From the NCBI GenBank assembly GCA_000004985.1, contig GG738855.1: 64,000 bases of DNA, one strand, 5' to 3'. Position 1 is the stretch's first letter. Every line of letters starts with the position of its first letter. Source of the stretch: Naegleria gruberi. Taxonomy: Eukaryota. Under the pieces are notes generated by a model. The model was not told the DNA's origin and searched no databases. It saw nothing but the letters and a program-made list of their open reading frames with translations. The position numbers and the translations under genes are program-made. Below, in pieces: positions 3,753 through 49,781 of this stretch.

Positions 3753-6474
3753 CTAATTGAGAGCAAAACCTCCTCCTAAATGTACCCTAGTTCCTTCTCC
3801 AGGAGTAACTTTGTAAGATGGTTCTCCGGCCATTTCCTCACCTCCTAAAGTTTGTGATTGAGATCGTTCCTTTTCCAAGTAGAAATCCTTCTTTGTTTGT
3901 AAGAATTTCTTCTTGGTATCTTTGAGTTCTCTGTTAAGTCTTTCCTTTTCATACTCTTGTTGTTTATCCTTGTATTGTAAAAAGTTAAGTTCAGAAGCAA
4001 GAGATTGAATTTGAGAATTCTTCTTTCTCAAAGTCTCTTGATAAATATTAAGCTGTTCTGCAACTTCTGGACCTGGTTGTCTTGAAAGGATAGCCTTGAG
4101 CTTTTTGTTCATTTCCTCCTTTTCTTGAACAATTAAATCCTTTTCCATAACTTCCTCAGTTTTGGCAATCAATCTCTTTTGGAGCGTTTGGGTTTTAAGA
4201 ACAAGTTCATATTGTGTAGGATCGCTTCCTTCTAACTTTCTCCATCTGTGAACGTTCATTGGATTTTGAAGTTCTTCTGAGAGAGCTTTGACCTTGTTTC
4301 TTTCTTCGAGTAATTGTTTCTTCAACTCATGATTCTCTCTTTGGAATTCCTTAATCTTGTAAATGTGCTTCTTCAAGACTTGTAATTGTCTTGTGAGATC
4401 TTTGATTTTCAGTTTGAGAATCTTGATGTCACCCAACCGTTCTCTATATTGAATAGCTCCCTTGTCTAGTGTACTGTTTTGAAGTTGAATCTTTTCATAG
4501 AGGAGTGCAATTTCGTCGTTTCTTCTAATCAACTGAGTACCTAGAACATCTCTTTCACTAACAACAGCATCATAGTCCTTTTGTTGTTTTCTTCTTTCAT
4601 TATCAGCTTGCTTAATGATTTGAGTGAGCCTATAGTTTTCAGACTCGTGAGATTTGATGATTCTTTCCTGTTCCTTTTGCTTTTCTTCCAACAATTTAAT
4701 TTCTTCCTTCATCTTTTCCTTCTTCTTCAGGATTTGTTTAGCATTGTATGTTTCATCAACGAGAGCCTTTTCTCTACTGGTAATTTCATCCTTAAGTTGA
4801 GTAATTTGTTGTTCCATAATCTTGAACTGTTTCTTCATTTCTTCTGCCTCTTCGTGAGCCGCAATAAGAGCCTTACTCTTAGTGTTTCTTTCGCTTCTCA
4901 CTGATTCATATAGAGATTGTTGAGTCTTCAATTTTTCTTGAAGTTCAATAATCTTCTTTTGAAGCTCATTCAATTCAACAGTCTTGATTCTTACTTCTTC
5001 CAGAGCTTGTCTGTATTTCAGGTCAGAATCTGAAGCCTCCGAAGCATATCTTTCTCTTTCCTTCTCCAGTGTGTAGGTAAGTTGTCTGTACTTTTCTGTT
5101 TGCTTCCTTTCAGCAACAATTTCAGCTTTCAATACCTTTGAATTTCCTTCCAGAATTTTAATGTTATCCTGTTTCTTAGTCTTTTCCTTTTTCATGAGAA
5201 CCAAACTCTTACTGAGGTAATTTCTTTCTGCTTTGATTTTTTCTCCAGCTTCCAATTGTTGATCTTTTTGATTATTTAATTCCTCTATGACCTTGTTCAA
5301 ATGGATAATTTCTTGATTGAGAGATTCTTTAGATCTTTCAATTTCTTCCTTTTCATTTTCAACAATCTTCTTCTTTTGTTGGAGAGTTTGATAGCTTTGA
5401 TGCCATTGATTCTTTTCATCAATAACTTCTTTAACTTTTGTTTCCAACAACTTCTTTTCGAAATTCAATGTTTGATCGTTAGCCTTCAACCTAGAAACTT
5501 CAGCAATTAGTCCAACTCTTTCCTTTTCATCTGTATCAATGGTAGACTTGTATTGCTCTATTCTCTTTTGGAGAGAATTAATAGTTTGTTCCATATCCTT
5601 GATAACCTTTTCCGAATCTGTCACTCTTGTTTGTTCCTTCTTAATATTCTCATCTTTCTTTAAGAGTTCTTGAGCTTTAGCTGTGAGAAGTTGTTTCGAT
5701 TCTTTAAGTTCCTTTTCTGATTTTTCCTTTTGCTTGATTGTTTGATCTAACTTGTTCTTTGTTTCGTTGAGCTGTTCATTGATACTTTCAATAACAGTTA
5801 GCAATTTCTTCTTTTCTTGATTTACATCATTGATCTGTAAGAATAGTAGGTTATTAGAATTAATACTAGTACAATTTTTTGAAACTAACCTGAATTTGCA
5901 TATTCGATAATTCATTGTTAAGGGAAATTACTTGAGCATTTTTCATTTCCTTTTCTCTGGCAAGCTCCTTTTTTACCTTTTCCAACTCTGGTGCAGAGGC
6001 ATCTTGAACTGTATTACCGGTTCCTTGATTTGCAATTTTTGTCAGCTCCGAAATTTCTTTGGTAAGTTTTTGAACAGTTTCCTTAGCTTTGGCTTCTTTT
6101 TCATGTGATGCGTTTACTAGTTTCCATGCTTTATCAATTTCCTTTTTTAAAATTGCGATGGTGTTTTGGTCTTCCTTAGATAAATTAATTGCTGTTTGTA
6201 CCTTGATGGCATTTGCTACTATTTGTTGAGTAAGTTCCTCACATCTCTTCATAAGTCTCTTCTCATTTTCGTGACATCTCAATAAATTACGATGTAATTT
6301 TTCATATTCAATCCTAAAATTTTCCAAATGATCTTTTCCAGCCAATTCCATCAAAACTTCTTGAAAATCTCTTTCAAGTGTTTCAAAGGCTGTTTTGGTC
6401 AAACTAAGGACCATCTTTTCTTGATCATTCTCCTTTCCATCTCCTTGTTGGTTGGTCGAACCATCTGATGACAT
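3753..6474 (-). CDS. CFAP58: CFAP58 (CCDC147) homologue, cilia/flagella-associated coiled-coil protein; 2 exons (6474..5890, 5834..3753), about 888 aa
   Basis: The minus-strand ORFs 5866-6474 and 3753-5915 are joined by a 55-nt intron (about 5835-5889; donor GTTAGT, acceptor TTACAG) and are frame-consistent (585 + 2082 nt). The N-terminus FETLERDFQEVLMELAGKDHLENFRIEYEKLH matches, from memory, the CFAP58 N-terminal signature (FEDLEKDFQEVLTELSG..LEKFRVEYERLH). The C-terminus RQPGPEVAEQLNIYQ...GGGFALN matches RQPGPEAAEQLKLY...GGGF. The whole protein is coiled-coil. Confidence 0.75.
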
Positions 6475-26107: not shown

Positions 26108-28343
26108 ATGAATGGCGTCAAAAAAATGCTCGCATCAACCTCAACAGCTTTCCCTCAATCATCATCATTCGATGGTAACAATAATGAGGAAAATTCAAAG
26201 CAATCTTTTCGGAAGTTGAGAATTGAGGCACCACCAATAGTACAATATGAATTTGATAGAAGAGGAGGAGGAAGTACATCAAAACAACTTCCTCCACTAT
26301 TAGCAAATCAACCAAGAACCATTTCCAATGGTGATATTCTCTCCACTCCAACTAACAGGAGGTTATCTCCCGTGCTTAAGAGATCGATGAGTGCATCACC
26401 ATCAACAGAAATGGGACTTGAATCACCGGTCCTTCTAATTTCTAAACCTTTTGAAAGTGAAAATGATGGCTTTGAGCCGGGAGAGGCATCAGAAGCTGAA
26501 TTGTTGGAAAGAGGTGCACTCTTTTATTCACCACTTTTCATTTAGGAACAGATTAACAGTAGGACCTGAGATTAGGTCCCCAACACCTCCAAGGCTAAAG
26601 AGAGGGTATTCAAATAGATCTCTCAAAGAAATACCTACAGAATTACTCCCAACCATTGTCTCAGTATCATCACCAACATCATCTAATCTTTCACCCTCTC
26701 CACTATTAGAGGAAGTCAGAAGACAACAAGGTGACCTTTCCATTCCTATTTCTCCTTCTTCAAACTCATCACTTCCTCCAACACCACCATCAATTAAAGG
26801 AAGACTCTCGAAACAACCTTCATTTACAGATCCTAATGCTAGAAGAATGAAAAGTTCGGGAAGTTCAACTGGTACCTTTCTTACGGAAGTTTCCTTAAAG
26901 TCTATGGATAGTTTTTTCATTCCAAGCCCTCCTAAACAAGTTCATTTACTTCCAGATTTTCTCTTTTCCCCCCAAACAGAAAATATTGAAAATTGCAGAT
27001 TTCCTTCTGATTTTAATAATCCTCAATTTCCAAGAAATAGACCCCTAAATCCAAAATATGTGTTGAACAAGACTCTCATACTATATTTCCCTTCTCTCTT
27101 CTCAGATTACACTAATTCAGAACATAGAATTCAGTTTAATGACTTATTTTTGACAGAGCAAAATCAATCGATACTAATTGACTCTTTTTGGTGGTTTTTC
27201 TTGACTGTATTTTCAAAGGATTATCTTTTAAGAAAAGCAGTTCAATATTACGAGTACATGATAGAGAAGGAGTTGGAGAAGAGAAAAGAAAAGAATAACT
27301 TTTTCCTAAGAAAGGAACAACACAAAGTTTACAAAGAGAAAGGAGAGAATTGGGCAAACCAAGTTTATAAGAAACTTTTAGGAGAATTACCTGCCATTGA
27401 AAATAGAATTTCTAATAATTATGCAGAGCTTGTTGTTAAATTTATTACTCACAGATCTTACACCATCAAGACAAATATACAACTTGATTTGGATGATATA
27501 TTTATTGAGGTTATTTCGAAATCTGTTTTTCTTGCTTATGGGTTAAATTTTCCAGATTGTCATGAAATATTCGAAACAGAAGCGTTTCAAGCAAGAGTAG
27601 CGAGACAATTTCAATTGTGGTGTTTTGGTGTCTGTACCATTAATTTACCATTTCTTGACACCTTATGGATGTTTAAAATGGAGTTGAAATCACCTCCCTA
27701 TGTAAGGGATGAGCATTCTCTATCTCCAAAGCAAAGATTCAAGAGAGCTATCCAAGCTGTCAGAGTTGGTTACAATGAAAGTATTGTTAAAACAAAGGAA
27801 GTGAGAGAAGAATTAGAAAAGGCATTGGATAACCTTGAATATAATGATTATTCACCAGCCTACAATTTATTTGAGATGTTTTTTGAAGATGAATCTGAAT
27901 TTGCAGCAATTAGAAAACAAAACAAAAGGTTGCAAATTATGGAGGCGTTCACTTCTGGAGCTACTCTTAAAGAAGAAGAATTGAATGAAATTATTGAATG
28001 TGACGATAGGGATGAAGAGCTATTTATTGAACTTCAAATATTAAAAGAAAAGAAGGAAAAGAACATATTTGCCAAACCTCTTCCTTCTAAAGATATCAAG
28101 GAAATAGCTGCTGTCAGAGAGAAAGCTTGGTATGAAATGGGTGAAGGAACAACTAAAACGCTTGTTACAAATATTAAACAAGTGAAAACACTAGGAACCT
28201 TTAAAACCTATTCACACAGCAAAAAATCAAGCCCTCTAGTTTCTCAATATTTGACCTTACTTCGTCACAATAAGGCAACTCAAAGAAAGCAAGAACGATT
28301 TGAAAAGAGAATGGAATTAAGAAAAAATTACATGAAGGAATAG
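26108..28343 (+). CDS. hypothetical protein, S/P-rich N-terminal half and structured C-terminal half; internal frame transition unresolved
   Basis: ORFs 26108-26545 and 26451-28343 overlap in different frames around 26500-26560, so there is either a very small intron or a 1-nt assembly error. The N-terminal half is low complexity with many SP/TP sites; the C-terminal 400 aa is non-repetitive (e.g. QLWCFGVCTINLPFLDTLWMF) with no recognised family. Confidence 0.4.
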
Positions 28344-32709: not shown

Positions 32710-33210
32710 TGTTTTTTATTTTTTGAATGAATCGTTTCAACAACACTTGGTTGCGTCTTTATTCGATTCTTCCACCCAAACCTTGTTTGTGAAGCTTTGG
32801 CAATGAACTTGCACCACGAAAATGGCAATTTTTGCTGCAGTTAAGAGGTGAATTTCACAAGGTGTGAAATGTCCAAAAGCACTAGCTTGTTAAAGATGCA
32901 AAGTGTTCTGACCACAGAATTGAAACTAACAATATGTGGAATTGTTACCTCAAACCTCCAAGTGTTATTTCATGTTTTGACTGTTGTTGAAATGTGATAT
33001 CGAATTTGGTAGCCATTAACATTTTGGAACAACCAAAATAAAAACTGAGATAACAGTTCCCCATTAAAATTCATAAATGAATCATCGGCAGCCGTAGATA
33101 TTATCCATCTACAACTTTTAGCTTCGTTACTTGCCACATGGATTCGTTACCGAATCGAATGCATTCCTTATGTTTAACTCTCATTAAAGTCTCAAATCAT
33201 CACAACAGAT

Positions 33211-35060
33211 TTATTGGTGCCATGTTTTGGATTCATCATAAATATTAATCTTGTATCTGAAAGAAATAACCTTATTTCTTAAATTTGGTTGTTTTGGAAG
33301 GGGATCTTTGAATACAACCTTGAATTTGCCACTCTGGCCAAATGGTGAATCAATTATACCTGAAAATCTTGGTTGGTCATCAATGAGAATATCAATCTTC
33401 TTTCCAATGAAAAATTGCAGTGATTGAGTTTTGGAAGTGAGAAGATTTTTTCCAATAATTGTGTTGGCATCAACAACTCTATCAACTACAGCTTTCTTTT
33501 CCTTGTATTTAAAAACAGGAAGAGAGTTGACAAGCTGTTCTTTGGAAACATTGGATTTGTTCCACATCTTGATAACTTTACCATTGAATGCCAATCTACA
33601 CATATTCGCATCTATTTGTGTTAGAAAAGATGATCGTAAAAAACTTACTGATATCTGTATCCAGTTTGGAAGCAATATAATTAGAGTTTGGATAGCAACA
33701 CACTGGTTTTTCAAATTCAATTTTAACAAAAACATCTTTTTCTTGATAAGTTGTTTCGGTCAATTCCTCCAATAAAGAGTACTCTACCGTTGTATCGAAT
33801 ATGTTACTTGAAAGGCCTTCTTTCTTGGCTCTGGCGATAAGGGAAACATTTCCCATAACAGTTTCATGCCCAATAGATACTATTTCAATTAGTACAGAAA
33901 TGATTACTAGAATACATACTGTGATATTTTGCAGAGTTTTTGATTTCCTTCTTGAAAAATCTGATTCTAGAAGCATTTGCTAGAATTGTGTCAACAATTT
34001 CAATATAGCCTTTGTCACATGCAAAACCTCTCTCCAGCTTTTTGCTATCCAATTTTGTAACTGCAATACCAATTCGATCTCCTTTAATTGCCTTATCTAC
34101 AGGTGTTTTAAACATTTGGATGGATTTGACCTTCTTTTCCTCCCCAATAGAAGGAATTTGAATTGTTTTACCAATACTAACACTGCCTTGCAAAACAGTT
34201 CCTGTAATAATAGTTCCCTTTCCTTTGATTGTAAAACAGTGGTCAACCATATATAGGAATGGCTCATTTTCATCCTTTTCTGAAATTTTTACATGTTTTT
34301 GGAATTCAGCAATGAGATTTTTAAGTCCTTGTTCCTTTGTTATACTTTCACTTTCTTCTCTTGGATCAGCACAAACAGAAACAATTGGAGGGTTTTTAAA
34401 TTTAGTTTGGGAAAAGACATTCTTAATGAGACTTTTCTTAATCTGTAATGAAAATTAATTTCCTAAATATATTTTGAAATTACTGACCTTATCAACACGG
34501 TCCTCTCTTTGATCTGCTGGAATCATATCGACCTTATTGAGGGCAACAATTAAATTATTACATGAAATTTCTCCAATAACAATGCATTCAGCTGTTTGAG
34601 TTTGTACACCTTTCACAGCATCAATAACCAATACCATGAAATCAATAATTTGAGCTCCACCAATAATTGTTCTAATTAAACTGGCATGGCCAGGACAATC
34701 TACAAGAGTATATTGAATCCTATCATATTCAGATAATGGGGAATCAGAGTAAAATGCAGAGAAACCCAAATCTTGAGTAATACCTCTTTCTTTTGATTGA
34801 GGACTTTTATCAAAGGCTGCTGTTGAAGCGTGAGTTGACAGAGCTTTACATAAACTTGTTTTTCCTTTCAAATAAATCATTAGAATAAATTTCATTAAAA
34901 ACTCACCAGAATCAACATGTCCTATTATTATTGAAATAAGAATTGATATTAGAATTGAGAAACAAACCTAAAATTCCAACATTTACATTTAATATTCTAT
35001 GTGATGATCGGAGAGTTACATTCTCTTCTCCTCCTTGATTATTTGTTTCCGAATCTTGGT
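33211..35060 (-). CDS. selenocysteine-specific elongation factor (eEFSec/SelB-like), at least 6 exons with 37-46 nt introns
   Basis: Exons on the minus strand are about 35060..34968 (..RILNVNVGILG), 34907..34921 (HVDSG), 34864..34488, 34442..33920, 33879..33649 and 33611..33211; every junction was frame-checked against the ORF track. Signature residues are GILGHVDSGKTSLCKAL, ERGITQDLGFSAF (compare eEFSec GITLDLGFS), VDCPGHASLIRTIIGGAQIIDFMVLVIDAVKG and NKVD, followed by beta-barrel domains II-IV. The initiator codon is unresolved: the only upstream ATG (about 35085) is in a different frame. Confidence 0.75.
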
Positions 35061-35300
35061 TTTGATTTGTGAACTTGATGGCAAACTGGTTTCCTTCTCT
35101 GTAGACATTTTTTATTAATATCTAACTTTTTAATTTCGCCTCTTTACAGACTTGAATATGCTTCACTGGTAAATAAATGTTTTATCTAAATATTCTCTTA
35201 AGTTATAATTGCTGATTGACTTTGTGATAATCAATCGGATCAATCATTAAATTAATTTTTAAATATTCGTGATGACATCACACAATAATTATTAATAAAA

Positions 35301-36391
35301 ATGAGTGATTTGGATGCTGGAGAGGACATGTTTGATGATTTTTTAAATTCCCGTCTTGAGGATGATGAAACCATAGGCCATGATCAATCTGTTACTGATG
35401 CTATCAATGATGATGAATTTGAGAAATTATTGAATGAATCTGAGACAGAGACTGTACAAAATGAACCGGAAAAGGAATCAATCAATGTTGATTTATCATC
35501 AGCAACAACAATAACTGCATCCACTGAATCCGTCATTGAAAAGAAGGAAGAACAAGTTAAAGATGATGAGGAAGTCATTGAATTTTCGTGGAGCGATGAA
35601 GACTATAGCAAAGACGAAACCGATCAAGTTAATCAAAATAATGCAATTTCAGAAATTAAAATTCAACAAGAAAAACCAGTGACAATTGAAAAGTCAGAAA
35701 ATAGGGAACTCTAATTTAACAAATAATGCTAGTAATAGTACTACTACTGATCAGGGAACATCAGTTAAAAGTGAGGAAATAATTGAAACTAGAATTAGTG
35801 TAATGATTTCCGACGTTTTGAATAGATTTGGAAAAGTAATTGACATTGATAGTAGATCGGAAGCTATTGAGAATAGAATTAAACATTTGAAAGAAGAAGA
35901 GGTAGAGTCTGAGTATAGTTTTGGAAAATTAAAAGGTAGTATTCAGAGAAAATTGGTAGTTCTCGAATGTGCTGTAGAGAATTTGTGTGTTCTTGTGGAA
36001 AAGAATGTACAAAGAAAATTGAAATTGAGAGAATCTAAACAGGTTTTGAAAGAGCAATTGAGAGCAAACATTGAAAAATACTCTGAAAAGTGCACTCAAT
36101 TAGATGAACAGAAAGAGAAATACTCCAAGATGGAAAATTTATGGGAAAAGGATAGAAAGAACCTTGTAGATCTCATTGAAAAATTGAAGCAACAAGTAGA
36201 AAGCAAGGATCCTGAAAATGAATTCCTCAAAACAATGAAAATTCCAGAAGCTCCTAAAGCAACAGACTCTGAAGACAATACTCTTTCTAACCTTACTAAA
36301 TCTCTCCTATCACTTCCAGAAGCTTGGAAATCCTCTAATCCATCCGATTCTAATCCCCAATCTTCCAACACATCCTCTAGCTCTTCAGCCG
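35301..36391 (+). CDS. hypothetical acidic/coiled-coil protein, truncated by assembly gap (possibly the 5' part of the downstream acyltransferase gene)
   Basis: The ATG ORF 35301-35714 (acidic, D/E-rich) overlaps ORF 35686-36391 (a TTG artefact start, coiled-coil, Ser-rich end) in another frame at an A-rich stretch near 35690-35714. The frame is open into the N-run at 36392. Confidence 0.35.
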
Positions 36392-36903
36392 NNNNNNNNN
36401 NNNNNNNNNNNNNNNNNNNNNNNNNNNNNNNNNNNNNNNNNNNNNNNNNNNNNNNNNNNNNNNNNNNNNNNNNNNNNNNNNNNNNNNNNNNNNNNNNNNN
36501 NNNNNNNNNNNNNNNNNNNNNNNNNNNNNNNNNNNNNNNNNNNNNNNNNNNNNNNNNNNNNNNNNNNNNNNNNNNNNNNNNNNNNNNNNNNNNNNNNNNN
36601 NNNNNNNNNNNNNNNNNNNNNNNNNNNNNNNNNNNNNNNNNNNNNNNNNNNNNNNNNNNNNNNNNNNNNNNNNNNNNNNNNNNNNNNNNNNNNNNNNNNN
36701 NNNNNNNNNNNNNNNNNNNNNNNNNNNNNNNNNNNNNNNNNNNNNNNNNNNNNNNNNNNNNNNNNNNNNNNNNNNNNNNNNNNNNNNNNNNNNNNNNNNN
36801 NNNNNNNNNNNNNNNNNNNNNNNNNNNNNNNNNNNNNNNNNNNNNNNNNNNNNNNNNNNNNNNNNNNNNNNNNNNNNNNNNNNNNNNNNNNNNNNNNNNN
36901 NNN
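36392..36903. other. assembly gap (512 N)
   Basis: A run of n from 36392 to 36903. ORF-track proteins composed of X across this region are artefacts. Confidence 1.
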
Positions 36904-37799: not shown

Positions 37800-39648
37800 A
37801 TGCCATCCAGCACAACAACAACCGTGGAGAACATTATCAAAGTCAAAACCTTTGCTCATGCTTTGAATCAACAGGACACGGATTTTGCAATATTATTTAG
37901 ACATGTATATTGTTTATTTAATAGAACACTGTGTTACTCACATGATACTGTTTGTCCCAAAGGTTTCTTCATTACAGATGCTGTTGGCAAAAGTATTAAT
38001 TTGTTTTTCGTGTTGGATACACCAAGATTAGCTTCCGAAGCTAACTTACTCATTGAATCATCTAACCATCTCCTTCATGGATTTGTAAATATCATGGTTA
38101 GGATTACATCACAGAGTTTCACTTCTAATAGTATTAATAATAGTTGTAATATGAACATTCAACACAACAATACAAATAATAATAACTCATTACGGCCCAG
38201 CAACGACAGAGTTGCCATTGTTCCATTCATCGACGAAGATCATCAACAACAGGATCCTTCAATGAAACTTTTCGAAAACTCAATCTTTTCTACTGACATT
38301 AGTCTGAAAACGTTTTGTGAAGAGTATATTAGAGCTGTTAATAACAAGGCAGCTGTTCAACACATTCTGGGATTCTTCAGAGAAATTTCAGAATCTATTG
38401 GCTCTTCTGATCGATTCAAGATTGAAATCTTTAAGAATTGCACCTGCAGATCATTTGTTGGTGATTTTTATACAGTTTCTAGAGATATACTGAGGTATGG
38501 TTGAAATTAATTTCAATTTTATTATAATATTGCTTTCTATTAGCATTTGTAAGGTTGCATCTTTTGATAAATCTGCAAAGAAAGGATTATCTAAAGAACA
38601 AGTTGATTACGTAAATAGTATCAAACAAGATAGGCCATTCTATACCTTAATGTTAAAGATGGATCGTCTTATTAAAGATGTTGTAAATCCTCTATTCGAA
38701 TTTATGAAGTTTTGTCATAGAAAAGCAGATTGTTCTATATCACATCTCCTTTACAAGTATTGTATCAAGTTCAAAATAACCTCAGTTTCCCCTCAACAAA
38801 AGAATTCAAATTCTACATCTACAGGTCCTTACATGTCTGAATCTGAGGAGAGCGAATCTCCTACTGTTTACATACCAGATGTACAAACAGAAGTGAGAGA
38901 ATTAACCTTTCCAAAGAGCTCTCATCTCTACAAACAACTTCCTTCAGATCCAAACACAAGAAAATCACAAATAGAAAAAGATGTATTCAGGTTGGGAGCC
39001 CTCTTTTTAGCCTTTGTTACTGGATCTAAGGAAATTGGAGAAAATACAGTCGACTCTGTTTCTGAAATGTTAAAGCAGTTGAGAATGAGTGTAGATTATT
39101 TGAGACAAACACATGTTCAATTTGAAAATATGCTCATAACCAAAAAGTGTGGAGATGATACGAAAATCTACCTTATGAGTGAGAGGTTGGCTCATTTAAC
39201 AGCCCTTCATTATAGCCTTTCAACATTTGAAAAACTGGTTTCTGAAATGGTGGAGCAAAAAACATGTACCTTGAAACAAATGTTACTAATGGTTGAAAAG
39301 TCTGCCATGGACAAGATGATAGAGAATTTCCGTGACCAGTCATTTGAAGAGAAAATGACCAGTTGTGAACGAATCTCAAACTCAGTCCAGGCAGTATTGG
39401 GAAAGGATTCAGAAAAAAAGAAACAGATTAATGAAAGAAGTAGGATGATTTTGGGAGATTGTACAAACTCGAGCTTTATAACACCAGACTCACCCATGAC
39501 AATTTCTACAACTCCAACCCACAAGAGGAAATTTTCTGATACAACTGTTCAGTATTTCTGTTCACAGAGCAAGATACCTGCAAATAAGGTTGTAAAACGA
39601 GAAAACTTAGAGAATTATCCAAGAAGTGCAATAATAAATAGAAAATAA
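37800..39648 (+). CDS. hypothetical protein; 2 exons (37800..38494, 38544..39648), about 600 aa
   Basis: ATG at 37800 (ctaaaATGcca). A 49-nt intron (GTATGG at 38495; acceptor TATTAG at 38543) joins ORF 37800-38504 to ORF 38497-39648 in frame (..DILR|SICKVASFDKS..). No family is recognised. Confidence 0.35.
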
Positions 39649-46508: not shown

Positions 46509-49500
46509 ATGAGCAGCGATACCATATCAACTACAACAACATCTTCATCATCATCATCTAACTTTACAACACAATCCGGAGTGAATGTGCAAGTGCTTTT
46601 AAGATGTAGACCACCTAATGATAAAGAAAAGGGACAATCCATCTCTGTTGAAACCTTACCATATATGAGAAAGGAATTAAAGATTCATCAAAAACTTGTT
46701 CATGGAAAGGAAATAACAAAAACATTTACTTTTGATAGAGTGTATGGTCCACAAACAACACAAAAAGAATTCTTTGAAGAATCCATCAAATCCATTGTTG
46801 ATGAAGCCTTGGATGGTTTTAATTGTACAATTTTTGCTTATGGTCAAACCAGTTCTGGTAAAACATACACGTAAGTTTATATCAATTAATCTTAATTATT
46901 AATTACAAATAATTACAGTATGGAAGGAAGAAGAGATTCTAATGATGTGACTGACACACACTCTGGTGTCATTCCAAGAAGTATCTACCACATTTTCAGA
47001 ACATTGGAATCTAATTCAACTGAATACACTGTTAAAGTTAGTTGCATGGAATTATATAATGAAGAATTACAAGATTTACTCACAGATAGACAGAATAAGC
47101 TCAAAATATTCGATGATAGTACTGGTAGAAAGGGTACTGTTGTAGCTGGTTTGGAAGAAATCAATGTTAGGGATGCCTCTCAAATCATTTCCATTGTTGA
47201 GGATGCCCAAAAGAGAAGACAAATGGCTGAAACTAATTTGAACAAATCCTCAAGTCGTTCTCACTGTATTACTACAATTACTATTCATATGAGAGAAGTT
47301 AACGATGAAGGTGAGGAATTTATCAAGACTGGTAAACTCAATCTTGTAGATTTGGCTGGTAGTGAAAATATTGGTAGATCAGGAGCTGTTAAACAAAGAG
47401 CTAAGGAAGCTGGTATGATCAATCAAAGTTTGCTCACCTTGGGAAGAGTTATTACAGCTCTCACTGAACACAGCCCACACATTCCATACAGAGAATCAAA
47501 GTTAACTAGAATTTTACAAGACAGTTTGGGTGGTAAGACAAAGACTTGTTTGATCGCCACTATCTCTCCATCAATTTTGTGTATTGAAGAAACTTTAAGC
47601 ACAGTCGATTATGCTCACAAAGCTAAGAGTATTAAGAACAAACCTGAAGTCAATATGAAGGTTTCTAAGGCCCAATTGATCAAGGAAATGTCTTCTGATA
47701 TGGAAAAACTCAAAGCTGAACTTAATGCCCAAAGACTCAAGAACGGTATTTACATGGCACCTGAAATTTATGAAGAAACTAATAGAAAATTGAAAGAACA
47801 AGAAGCCACCATCAGGGATATGGAAGATCAACTTCAACTCAGAGTCAAAGAATATGAAGAATTATCCATCCTCTTTAAAGAAAAAGAGAGAGACCTCCAG
47901 AGAGAAATAGCTGAACATGGTGAAACTAGACAAACACTTTCTTCTACAAGAGATACACTGAAGAGAACAGAAATCGATCTCAAGAATACCAAGGTTGAAT
48001 TGGGAGCCACTAATTTTGTTCTTGGAAAGACTCAAGAAACCGAGGAACAACTTTTATCTCAAGCTCATTACCTTTTGAATAATCTTAAAGAAAGCATTTC
48101 TGATGTTGATGGATTCATTTCAAAAGTTGACAGAAAGGCTAAAGTTGAAAATGAAAATCAAACATTGATTTCACAATTCAAAAATACGATGGATGAAAAG
48201 TTTGGTAGATCAGTTGATGAGGTTCATCTACTCCAAGCCACTTTTGAAGCACTTAACAGCTCTGCCAAGACATCTGTTTCTGAATTCATTATTGAAAAGG
48301 ATGCTCATACAAAGAATGTTAGAGATCAACTTGTATCCATGTCTGACCTCTTTTCTACATCACAAAATGAAATCATCCAAATGATTGCCAACAAATCTGA
48401 TAGCCAATCCAAGACTTTGGACGATTTGTCTTCCACCAATCAATCATTTGAAGCTACTCTCATCAATAACATGATGACTATGAAGAATGCCTTTGAAACA
48501 TCAATTGGTATCATTAACGAACAAATTGTTGCCCAGAGAAGTGAAATGCTCAATATTCACACTTTCTTTGTTGAAACTCTTACTAGAAACACAAAGTTTT
48601 TGGAAAATTTTGCTGGTAAACACTCTGAAGTGATGAAGGGTTTGAAACAAGAGATTGAACAAACTGTTACTGACCATATCAATCAATCTAATAACAATAG
48701 TCAAAAATTGAATGAAATGCTCAAACAACAAAAGCTTCAAAATGCATCCCTTAAGCAAGAATTGTTGAAGAATTTTGAAAGCCTTATTGACAATACTTTT
48801 ACTTCACAAGAAGTAGAGTTAACCGAGAATGTACAAACAATCCAAAAGTTCTTTGACTATTCTGTCAACTCTGTCCAACAAATGGATGGATCTGTCAAGA
48901 AGAACACTGATGAATCATTGTTCAATTTGGAAAAGATCAAGACCAATCTAGGATCTAATCAACAAGATGCAATTCAATCCATGACCAAGTCAAGAATTAA
49001 CATTGAAAATTTGATGGATAATATTTCAGAAGAAAATACCAACCTTACCACCAACATTAATTCTTTCTATAACAATACTAAGAAAGCTATTGGTTCTAAT
49101 ACTTCATCTCTCGATTTGTTTGTTAATACCTCAAAGCAATCCCAAAAGGTCTTTATGGATGAATGTTCTGCCTCATCATGCAAGAGCATTTCTACCTTCC
49201 AAGAATACCACAATCAATTGCAACATCGTTCTGACAACTACCAAAATCGTCTATCAATGTTTGCTAACACTCATCTTGAACTTCACAATTCTCAACATGA
49301 AAAGGTTAATGAATATAAGAATCAATTTGTTTCTGAAAGAATGAATGATATGAAGCGTAGCTTGGATACATTTAGTTTGAATACTGATCAACCAACAGGA
49401 ACAACTCCACAAAAGAAGAAGAGAAAGCTTCCTGAATCTCTTCCAAAAACTCAACCAAGACAAGAATTGGTTGAATTGTACAAATTAACTTTACCAGAAT

Positions 49501-49781
49501 CATTTGAAGCTGAAGAAGTTTGTTCTGTCTCCACACCAGACTCTGATAATATGGAAGATGTTGAAGCTGATTCCATTAGTGTGTCTAGTAACAAGGAAAA
49601 TGTTGATGACAATAACTTATCACCAATAGCAATCGTACCAACTGTAAAATCTATCAACATTCCAATGAAGAAAGTGAGCTCTGAACCTACTATTGTAAAG
49701 AAGCCAATTGTTAAAAAACCAACTATTACTAAGGTCTTGAAAAATAGTGCTCCAAATTTTGGGGTTTCTTCTTTCAGATAA
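46509..49781 (+). CDS. kinesin-5 (BimC/Eg5 family) bipolar mitotic kinesin; 2 exons (46509..46870, 46919..49781), about 1074 aa
   Basis: A 48-nt intron (GTAAGT at 46871; acceptor TTACAG at 46918) splits the P-loop IFAYGQTSSGKTYT|MEG. Motor motifs: VQVLLRCRPPNDKE, SSRSHCI, LNLVDLAGSENIGRSG, HIPYRESKLTRILQDSLGG. The stalk is a long coiled-coil, and the tail has a BimC-box-like TGTTPQKKKRK Cdk site. Kinesin-5 assignment is based on motor similarity to Eg5 ([20 protein letters not shown]..GIIPR) and the overall architecture. Confidence 0.8.

Follow-up and report, generated by a model that had tools for sequence, protein, structure and literature searches.

Corrected gene model for the selenocysteine-specific elongation factor eEFSec of Naegleria gruberi, with a 15-nucleotide micro-exon in the P-loop

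Introduction

The selenocysteine (Sec)-specific elongation factor eEFSec, the eukaryotic SelB, is well characterised, and the human/mammalian protein, as represented by the structures 5izk and 7zjw, has a four-domain layout with the G1–G4 motifs GHVDSGKT, RGIT, DCPGH and NKVD and a conserved FGQSGKFK stretch in domain IV. The gene described here lies in a stretch of 64,000 nucleotides (nt) of Naegleria gruberi contig GG738855.1 (assembly GCA_000004985.1; this whole 64-kb stretch is called the window below), and its predicted product shares all of these features. It differs from the mammalian protein in having a longer N-terminal extension (~27–38 amino acids (aa), depending on how the frame break described below is solved) and a shorter insert between the G2 and G3 regions, and the gene structure is unrelated, the N. 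gruberi gene having short introns and a micro-exon.

The selenocysteine machinery of N. gruberi is already on record (da Silva et al. 2013, cited by PMC4561486 and PMC8038987). The former also mentions SPS2 fusions in N. gruberi, and the latter a predicted selenoprotein thioredoxin reductase in Naegleria. Very short exons are best compared with those of plants, where microexons of 15 nt or less have been found to be misannotated (PMC8831610). The N. gruberi micro-exon resembles these plant microexons in being very short, apparently constitutive, often mis-modelled and located in a conserved motif. It belongs, however, to another kingdom, and its flanking introns are compact (~45 nt) and not long.

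Results

Gene limits and identity of the product

The eEFSec gene occupies positions 35108..33211 of the minus strand and is complete, with all four domains present, two of them eukaryote-specific. By joining the open frames of the minus strand across GT...AG boundaries (positions 32900–35400 were read), we have obtained a reading of 554 codons in six coding blocks, which are separated by five GT-AG introns and end in a TAA stop codon (Table 1). A preliminary description of the locus had placed its limits at 33211 and 35060; the former is exact, being the last base of the stop codon, and the latter is too short, since the gene reaches at least 35108. The five introns of 37–46 nt given there agree in coordinates and lengths with our reading, as does the 15-nt HVDSG micro-exon between introns of 46 and 42 nt.

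Table 1. Features of the N. gruberi eEFSec gene, candidate frame-restoring introns in its first exon, and the 5-nt micro-exon of two sister species. Positions refer to the window unless a contig is named.
Feature	Position	Length	Strand	Remarks
Exon 1	34968..35108		-	ATG 35108–35106, N-terminal extension, NVNVGILG; holds the +1 frame discrepancy between the ATG and ~35040
Intron 1	34922..34967	46 nt	-	GTTTGT...ATAG, phase 1, within the Gly codon of ILG/H; 20.2 bits (leave-one-out)
Micro-exon	34907..34921	15 nt	-	GACATGTTGATTCTG, codes (G)HVDS(G) of the G1/P-loop motif GHVDSGKT
Intron 2	34865..34906	42 nt	-	GTGAGT...AAAG, phase 1; 17.0 bits; contains ATG 34880–34878
Exon	34488..34864	377 nt	-	KTSL... 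to the G2 (RGIT), G3 (DCPGH) and G4 (NKVD) motifs
Intron 3	34443..34487	45 nt	-	Phase 0 (VDK/IKK); identical position and phase in N. lovaniensis
Exon	33920..34442	523 nt	-	End of G domain, domain II, start of domain III
Intron 4	33880..33919	40 nt	-	Phase 1 (KYH/IS); identical position and phase in N. lovaniensis and Willaertia magna
Exon	33649..33879	231 nt	-	Domain III (euk_SelB_III)
Intron 5	33612..33648	37 nt	-	Phase 1 (TDI/NAN), CTAAC 8 nt before the 3' end; identical position and phase in N. lovaniensis
Last exon	33211..33611	401 nt	-	Domain IV (eEFSec_4th), TAA 33213–33211 at its end
Candidate introns, donor GTTTGC	35086–35055/35034/35031/35025	32/53/56/62 nt	-	-1.5 to -10.8 bits; 15th–72nd percentile
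Candidate introns, donor GTTCAC	35074–35055/35034/35031/35025	20/41/44/50 nt	-	-7.9 to -17.1 bits; 21st percentile (41-nt intron only)
Candidate intron GTAACT...CATAG	35019–34997	23 nt	-	7.0 bits; 98th percentile
ACAAG micro-exon, N. lovaniensis	L001 6248–6252	5 nt
ACAAG micro-exon, N. fowleri	L003 ~6240–6244	5 nt

From the domain content it is clear that the product belongs to the SelB branch of the translational GTPases. The first two domains match the Pfam families GTP_EFTU (PF00009, E = 1.3e-31) and GTP_EFTU_D2 (PF03144, E = 5e-11), both above cut-off, and they are followed by the two families specific to eukaryotic SelB, namely euk_SelB_III (PF21208, E = 1.1e-29, 103.9 bits against a cut-off of 27, covering profile positions 3–120 of 120) and eEFSec_4th (PF21131, E = 2.2e-15, 57.3 bits against a cut-off of 27). 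Among structures in the PDB, the best matches are human eEFSec (7zjw and 5izk, E ~3e-130, 438 bits), with which the motifs GHVDSGKT, RGIT, DCPGH and NKVD of the model align and which has a second aligned stretch at residues 428–556; the runners-up are archaeal SelB (2e-52, 181 bits) and EF-Tu (~1e-37, 131 bits or less). In a database search, the protein was 79% identical to that of N. lovaniensis, 69% to that of Willaertia magna, and 45–50% over ~90% of the length to annotated animal eEFSec; all top 120 hits contain both eEFSec-specific Pfam domains, and many of them are annotated as eEFSec. Scores with the NCBIfam models for EF-1-alpha and aIF2-gamma were far under the cut-offs of these models.

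The assignment of the locus to eEFSec, which had already been proposed in the preliminary description, is thus firmly supported by domains III and IV and by the human eEFSec structures. The fallback offered there, an eEF1A- or eIF2-gamma-like paralogue, would account for the G domain and domain II, which are common to all EF-Tu-like GTPases, but is excluded by domains III and IV, the ranking of the structures and the low NCBIfam scores, and we consider its probability negligible.

The product would accordingly be named by its predicted function, that of a GTPase delivering Sec-tRNA(Sec) to UGA codons; binding of Sec-tRNA(Sec) and GTP, and decoding of UGA together with SBP2 and the selenocysteine insertion sequence (SECIS), are predicted for it. 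No tRNA was found in a tRNA search of the 64-kb window, and an Rfam search of the same window, which included the SECIS and tRNA-Sec models, gave no match at the gathering threshold or at E <= 1. It is very probable that N. gruberi has a single-copy eEFSec gene with five canonical introns, a constitutive 15-nt exon and a start that is likely to be ATG 35108.

Introns and the 15-nt micro-exon

In order to judge the eEFSec introns against their surroundings, a reference set of 23 introns in the window has been curated from frame-joining GTNNGT...AG pairs between long open reading frames (ORFs). Their lengths run from 37 to 123 nt (median 45 nt), and every one of the 23 shows G at +5 and T at +6; 17 of them contain a YTAAY branch-like motif, and the T content of the set has a median of 42% and a minimum of 31%. 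The eEFSec introns fall well within this set, with a GTNNGT donor in all five cases and leave-one-out splice scores of 12–20 bits, within the range of the 23. Short introns are the norm of the N. gruberi genome and no peculiarity of eEFSec. The preliminary description was right about the sizes of the micro-introns, with the qualification that the median of the window is as short.

Three of the five introns match N. lovaniensis in both position and phase, and the one after KYH is also shared with Willaertia; at this same point, directly after KYH, two ORF-level gene calls on other Naegleria contigs (P0243 and P0244) likewise depart from the protein sequence. The intron at 34967–34922 has no counterpart at its position in N. 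lovaniensis, N. fowleri or Willaertia, and its splice score is above the median of the window introns. An independent strain is represented by the ENA metagenome contig L013 (ERZ929261), which is 99.3% identical to the window and spans positions 34955–31584. There, no change is seen in the micro-exon or in its four splice dinucleotides, and a 1-nt deletion at 34901 falls inside the intron 34906–34865, which argues that this stretch is non-coding, because a 1-nt deletion is tolerated only there. Seven exon differences separate this strain from the window, six synonymous and one non-synonymous. As far as comparative sequence can tell, it is confirmed that the gene structure is not a chance reading, because of the shared intron positions and phases, the intact micro-exon in the second strain and the mostly synonymous differences.

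The micro-exon has canonical flanks (..aataatag/GACATGTTGATTCTG/gtgagt..), both adjoining introns scoring 17–20 bits, and it joins the flanking blocks into NVNVGILG-HVDSG-KTSL, which restores a motif present in all homologues, so that its skipping would remove HVDSG from the P-loop. Because it supplies this part of the P-loop, the exon must be included for GTP binding, and judging from its sequence, and indirectly from its conservation in the second strain, it is a real and presumably constitutive exon. Across each of the short N. gruberi introns the splice sites are presumably paired (intron definition), and such pairing would make a 15-nt exon workable and less of a problem than under exon definition. 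The preliminary description was correct to treat the segment as a true exon, and the splicing demand that it ascribed to this exon is presumably lower than it would be in a vertebrate.

Micro-exons in the P-loop of sister species

Comparison with N. lovaniensis (XP_044543647.1) and with N. fowleri, a human pathogen whose selenoprotein thioredoxin reductase is discussed in PMC8038987, showed that these species are like N. gruberi in having a micro-exon inside the P-loop coding sequence of eEFSec, although it is a different one. Their P-loop is contiguous as far as GHVDSGK and then reads GGAAAG/gtgagt...ttttag/ACAAG/gtaaat...aaag/TCTCTG, with a micro-exon of 5 nt (ACAAG), as against 15 nt in N. 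gruberi, placed between GK/ and /(S)LCK and bordered on each side by consensus splice sites (Table 1). In N. lovaniensis the flanking introns are 91 and 98 nt long. Neither of the intron positions in these two species equals either of the P-loop introns of N. gruberi: the latter are both phase 1 and 15 nt apart, whereas those of N. fowleri and N. lovaniensis are phase 0 and phase 2 and 5 nt apart. No intron was found in the P-loop region of eEFSec in the outgroup Willaertia. On these alignments, one motif contains two evidently non-homologous micro-exons, of 15 and 5 nt, within a single genus.

Start codon and the frame break in exon 1

The frame that codes NVNVG is closed upstream by a TAG at 35124–35122 (minus strand), and no ATG is found between this stop and NVNVG. 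The ATG at 35108–35106 is in frame +1 relative to NVNVGILG and reaches a TAA at 35019–35017 after 30 codons, and another ATG, at 35022, shares this wrong frame, with the TAA directly after it. The preliminary description had thus correctly recognised the upstream ATG as out of frame, but it had placed it at about 35085 rather than at 35108. We consider ATG 35108 to be most likely the translation start, because its A-rich context (aataaaaaATG) and its distance to the P-loop resemble those of the start codons in the N. lovaniensis, N. fowleri and Willaertia orthologues. In none of these three orthologues is there an intron between the ATG and the P-loop. Further downstream, the frame-0 peptide EENVTLRSSHR-ILNVNVG aligns with E(G/A)VKSRASQR-ILNVNVG of N. 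fowleri and N. lovaniensis (BLOSUM62 score of 18 over 12 aa, shuffle p ~0.001); this similarity supports coding in frame 0 back to at least ~35040, so that the switch between the two frames must lie between 35105 and ~35040.

All frame-restoring GT..AG pairs in exon 1 have been enumerated and scored against random GT..AG pairs in coding ORFs (Table 1), and none of them resembles the introns of the window, the weakest of which scores 7.7 bits. A frameshifting lesion is present close by, in the divergent neighbour of eEFSec (plus strand, ATG 35301). In the window, an additional C at 35709, accompanied by T>A at 35703, breaks the reading frame of this gene in two relative to the ENA contig L012, in which it is a single ORF of 384 aa (P0245); the orthologues of N. 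fowleri and N. lovaniensis (P0247 and P0250) are single ORFs too. The frameshifting indel lies ~600 nt from the eEFSec start and is probably an assembly error or a strain-specific lesion. In addition, an assembly gap of 512 N (36392–36903) is situated within the neighbour, upstream of its acyltransferase (PF01553) part and 1.3 kb from the eEFSec ATG.

Because no candidate intron fits, the neighbouring gene carries a frameshifting indel and the assembly gap is close, we lean somewhat, by analogy with the neighbour, towards an indel of 1 nt, arising either in the reference assembly or in the strain itself, and not an extra intron, as the cause of the frame break. The two options named in the preliminary description, a micro-intron or a sequence error, were the right pair, and the evidence favours the error. 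The N. gruberi reference would then probably contain two single-base flaws within 700 nt, beside an assembly gap.

Several points weigh against this reading. The ENA contigs L012 and L013 end at 35097 and 34955, leaving 141 nt (35096–34956) with no second sequence, and the 1-nt indel has been deduced and not seen. The reference is presumably a Sanger assembly, in which single-base errors would be rare in absolute terms, and the extra C of the neighbour could be a real strain difference and not an error. One of the frame-restoring GT..AG pairs (35086–35034, 53 nt) has the length of an ordinary intron, and real introns can be weak. The protein collection contained none of ten N-terminal peptides guessed by homopolymer correction, the 30-aa out-of-frame ORF among them, but their absence is uninformative. 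A scan of the Joint Genome Institute (JGI) metagenomes for the 5' stretch returned only relatives of 49% identity or less.

The strongest alternative to an indel is that the reference is correct and that the first 100 nt of the gene hold one more short intron, the sixth and an atypical one, with the donor GTTTGC at 35086 and an AAG or GAG acceptor at 35055, 35034, 35031 or 35025, so that the protein would start with MSTEKET and continue with NSETNN.. or RGEEN.... All four lengths restore the frame and keep EENVTLRSSHR wholly or mostly, those of 53–62 nt are inside the normal range of the window, and both GTTTGT donors and AAG acceptors occur in other introns there. The scores of these candidates, however, are far below that of the weakest real intron, their C at +6 stands against T in all 23 introns, and their T content of 18–22% is below the minimum of the set. 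They also lack the YTAAY motif, and there is no counterpart in any of the three orthologues. A sixth intron of this kind is therefore unlikely.

It is also conceivable that the assembly is free of error and that the copy in this strain is truly frameshifted, either as an inactive or decaying allele or as one haplotype of a heterozygous polyploid genome. The neighbouring gene is likewise broken relative to another strain, and in the metagenome assembly of a near-identical strain the contigs end at either side of the 141-nt stretch, which could reflect allelic variation there. Against a decaying copy, everything downstream is intact, including the G motifs and the splice sites, and the differences between strains are predominantly synonymous, as given above; moreover, N. 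gruberi is reported as having the selenocysteine machinery (cited in PMC4561486). We regard a true frameshift in this strain as quite improbable.

The smallest candidate, a micro-intron of 23 nt at 35019–34997, would give a protein that begins MSTEKETSLPSSSQIKTKIRKQIIKEEKRI-ILNVNVG. Its length is 2 modulo 3, which restores the frame, and its score is within the top few per cent of random pairs (Table 1), but it falls 14 nt short of the smallest intron in the set of 23 and does not have the G that all of them show at +5. It would also remove VTLRSSH, which is aligned with VKSRASQ of N. fowleri and N. lovaniensis, leaving a spliced peptide that scores -8 in place of 18, and its GTAA start can be read as a Val codon followed by A, as in GTA AAA of N. 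fowleri. We have rejected it as a solution of the frame break on its length, its donor and the loss of conserved residues, and consider it very improbable.

Two further ideas were examined apart from these. On manual reading, an upstream exon with a 53-nt GTCTGT...ACAG intron (~35144–35092) was noted and rejected, as the intron would delete ATG 35108; neither upstream ATG opens a frame into such an exon, both stopping within 9–15 codons. Inspection for programmed -1 frameshifting gave no X XXY YYZ slippery heptamer.

Public gene models

The public protein of the locus (XP_002680038.1 / EFC47294.1 / D2V719, NAEGRDRAFT_31689, 'predicted protein', 515 aa) is identical to residues 45–554 of our model over its residues 6–515 (510 aa), and has the same three downstream introns. 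It was reached by exact look-up of exon-level ORFs, and the match identifies the window as N. gruberi; a ciliate or metazoan source, considered in view of the AT-richness and the short introns, was rejected on this match and on the best database hits being those of Naegleria and Willaertia. Exact look-ups of two large ORFs and two exon-level ORFs of the window gave no record. In contrast to the corrected model, it begins with MIYLK at an ATG (34880–34878) that lies inside the intron 34906–34865, and it lacks exon 1 with NVNVGILG as well as the 15-nt micro-exon, so that the first half of the P-loop is gone. The truncation would be explained by a predictor that was unable to bridge the micro-exon and the frame break. 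Both N. fowleri models are wrong in the equivalent region: KAF0973923.1 retains intron sequence at the ACAAG exon, and CAG4709028.1 skips TSLCK. Compared with these two, only the N. lovaniensis annotation has the 5-nt exon modelled correctly. The remark in the preliminary description that such an exon is easily missed by gene predictors is thus well illustrated by all three models. A literature search found no paper naming the locus tag or the accession numbers.

Surroundings of the gene

The 192-nt promoter region shared by eEFSec and its divergent neighbour contains indels of 10 nt and 3 nt relative to the ENA strain (35177–35187 and 35288–35290), with the flanking coding sequences being more than 99% identical to that strain. 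The 512-N gap in the neighbour is bridged by 454 nt of contig L012 (positions 1282–1735 of that contig). At 38669, within the plus-strand ORF 38494–39645, L012 has two extra bases (TA), and the single 384-codon ORF of the window corresponds to two ORF calls there; the discrepancy could stem from an intron, from variation between strains or from a mistake in one or the other assembly.

Long ORF pairs on the same strand but in different frames, overlapping by 83–139 nt, are seen at three further places, 26108–28340 (+), 14474–13169 (-) and 63373–61023 (-). No intron-like GT..AG pair was found to join the members of these three pairs (best scores <2 bits), and each may reflect another frameshift, an intron of unusual type or ORFs that arose by chance.

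An intronless gene for a kinesin-5 (KIF11-like) of 953 aa is located at 46920–49781 (+), its best match being that of N. fowleri (63% identity). A kinesin gene lies within ~4 kb of eEFSec in the ENA contig L004, which comes from another Naegleria-like organism, for which reason the linkage of eEFSec with a kinesin may be partly conserved.

Discussion

The biology of eEFSec is already known, and the value of the present analysis is that of an annotation correction. New at this level are the corrected eEFSec model of N. gruberi, the probable single-base flaw at its 5' end, the mis-modelled N. fowleri orthologues and the two micro-exons in one P-loop. Users who express, model or align the public proteins would be working with defective sequences.

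In addition to the corrected model, the positions and phases of the P-loop introns suggest, tentatively, that this segment of eEFSec could be a hotspot of intron turnover within Naegleria, a reading to which we give somewhat less than even weight. If true, as many as four introns would have been gained independently, or introns would have slid, within ~25 nt. The spliceosomes of Naegleria would then routinely process exons as short as 5 nt, and annotations of Naegleria may systematically lack micro-exons.

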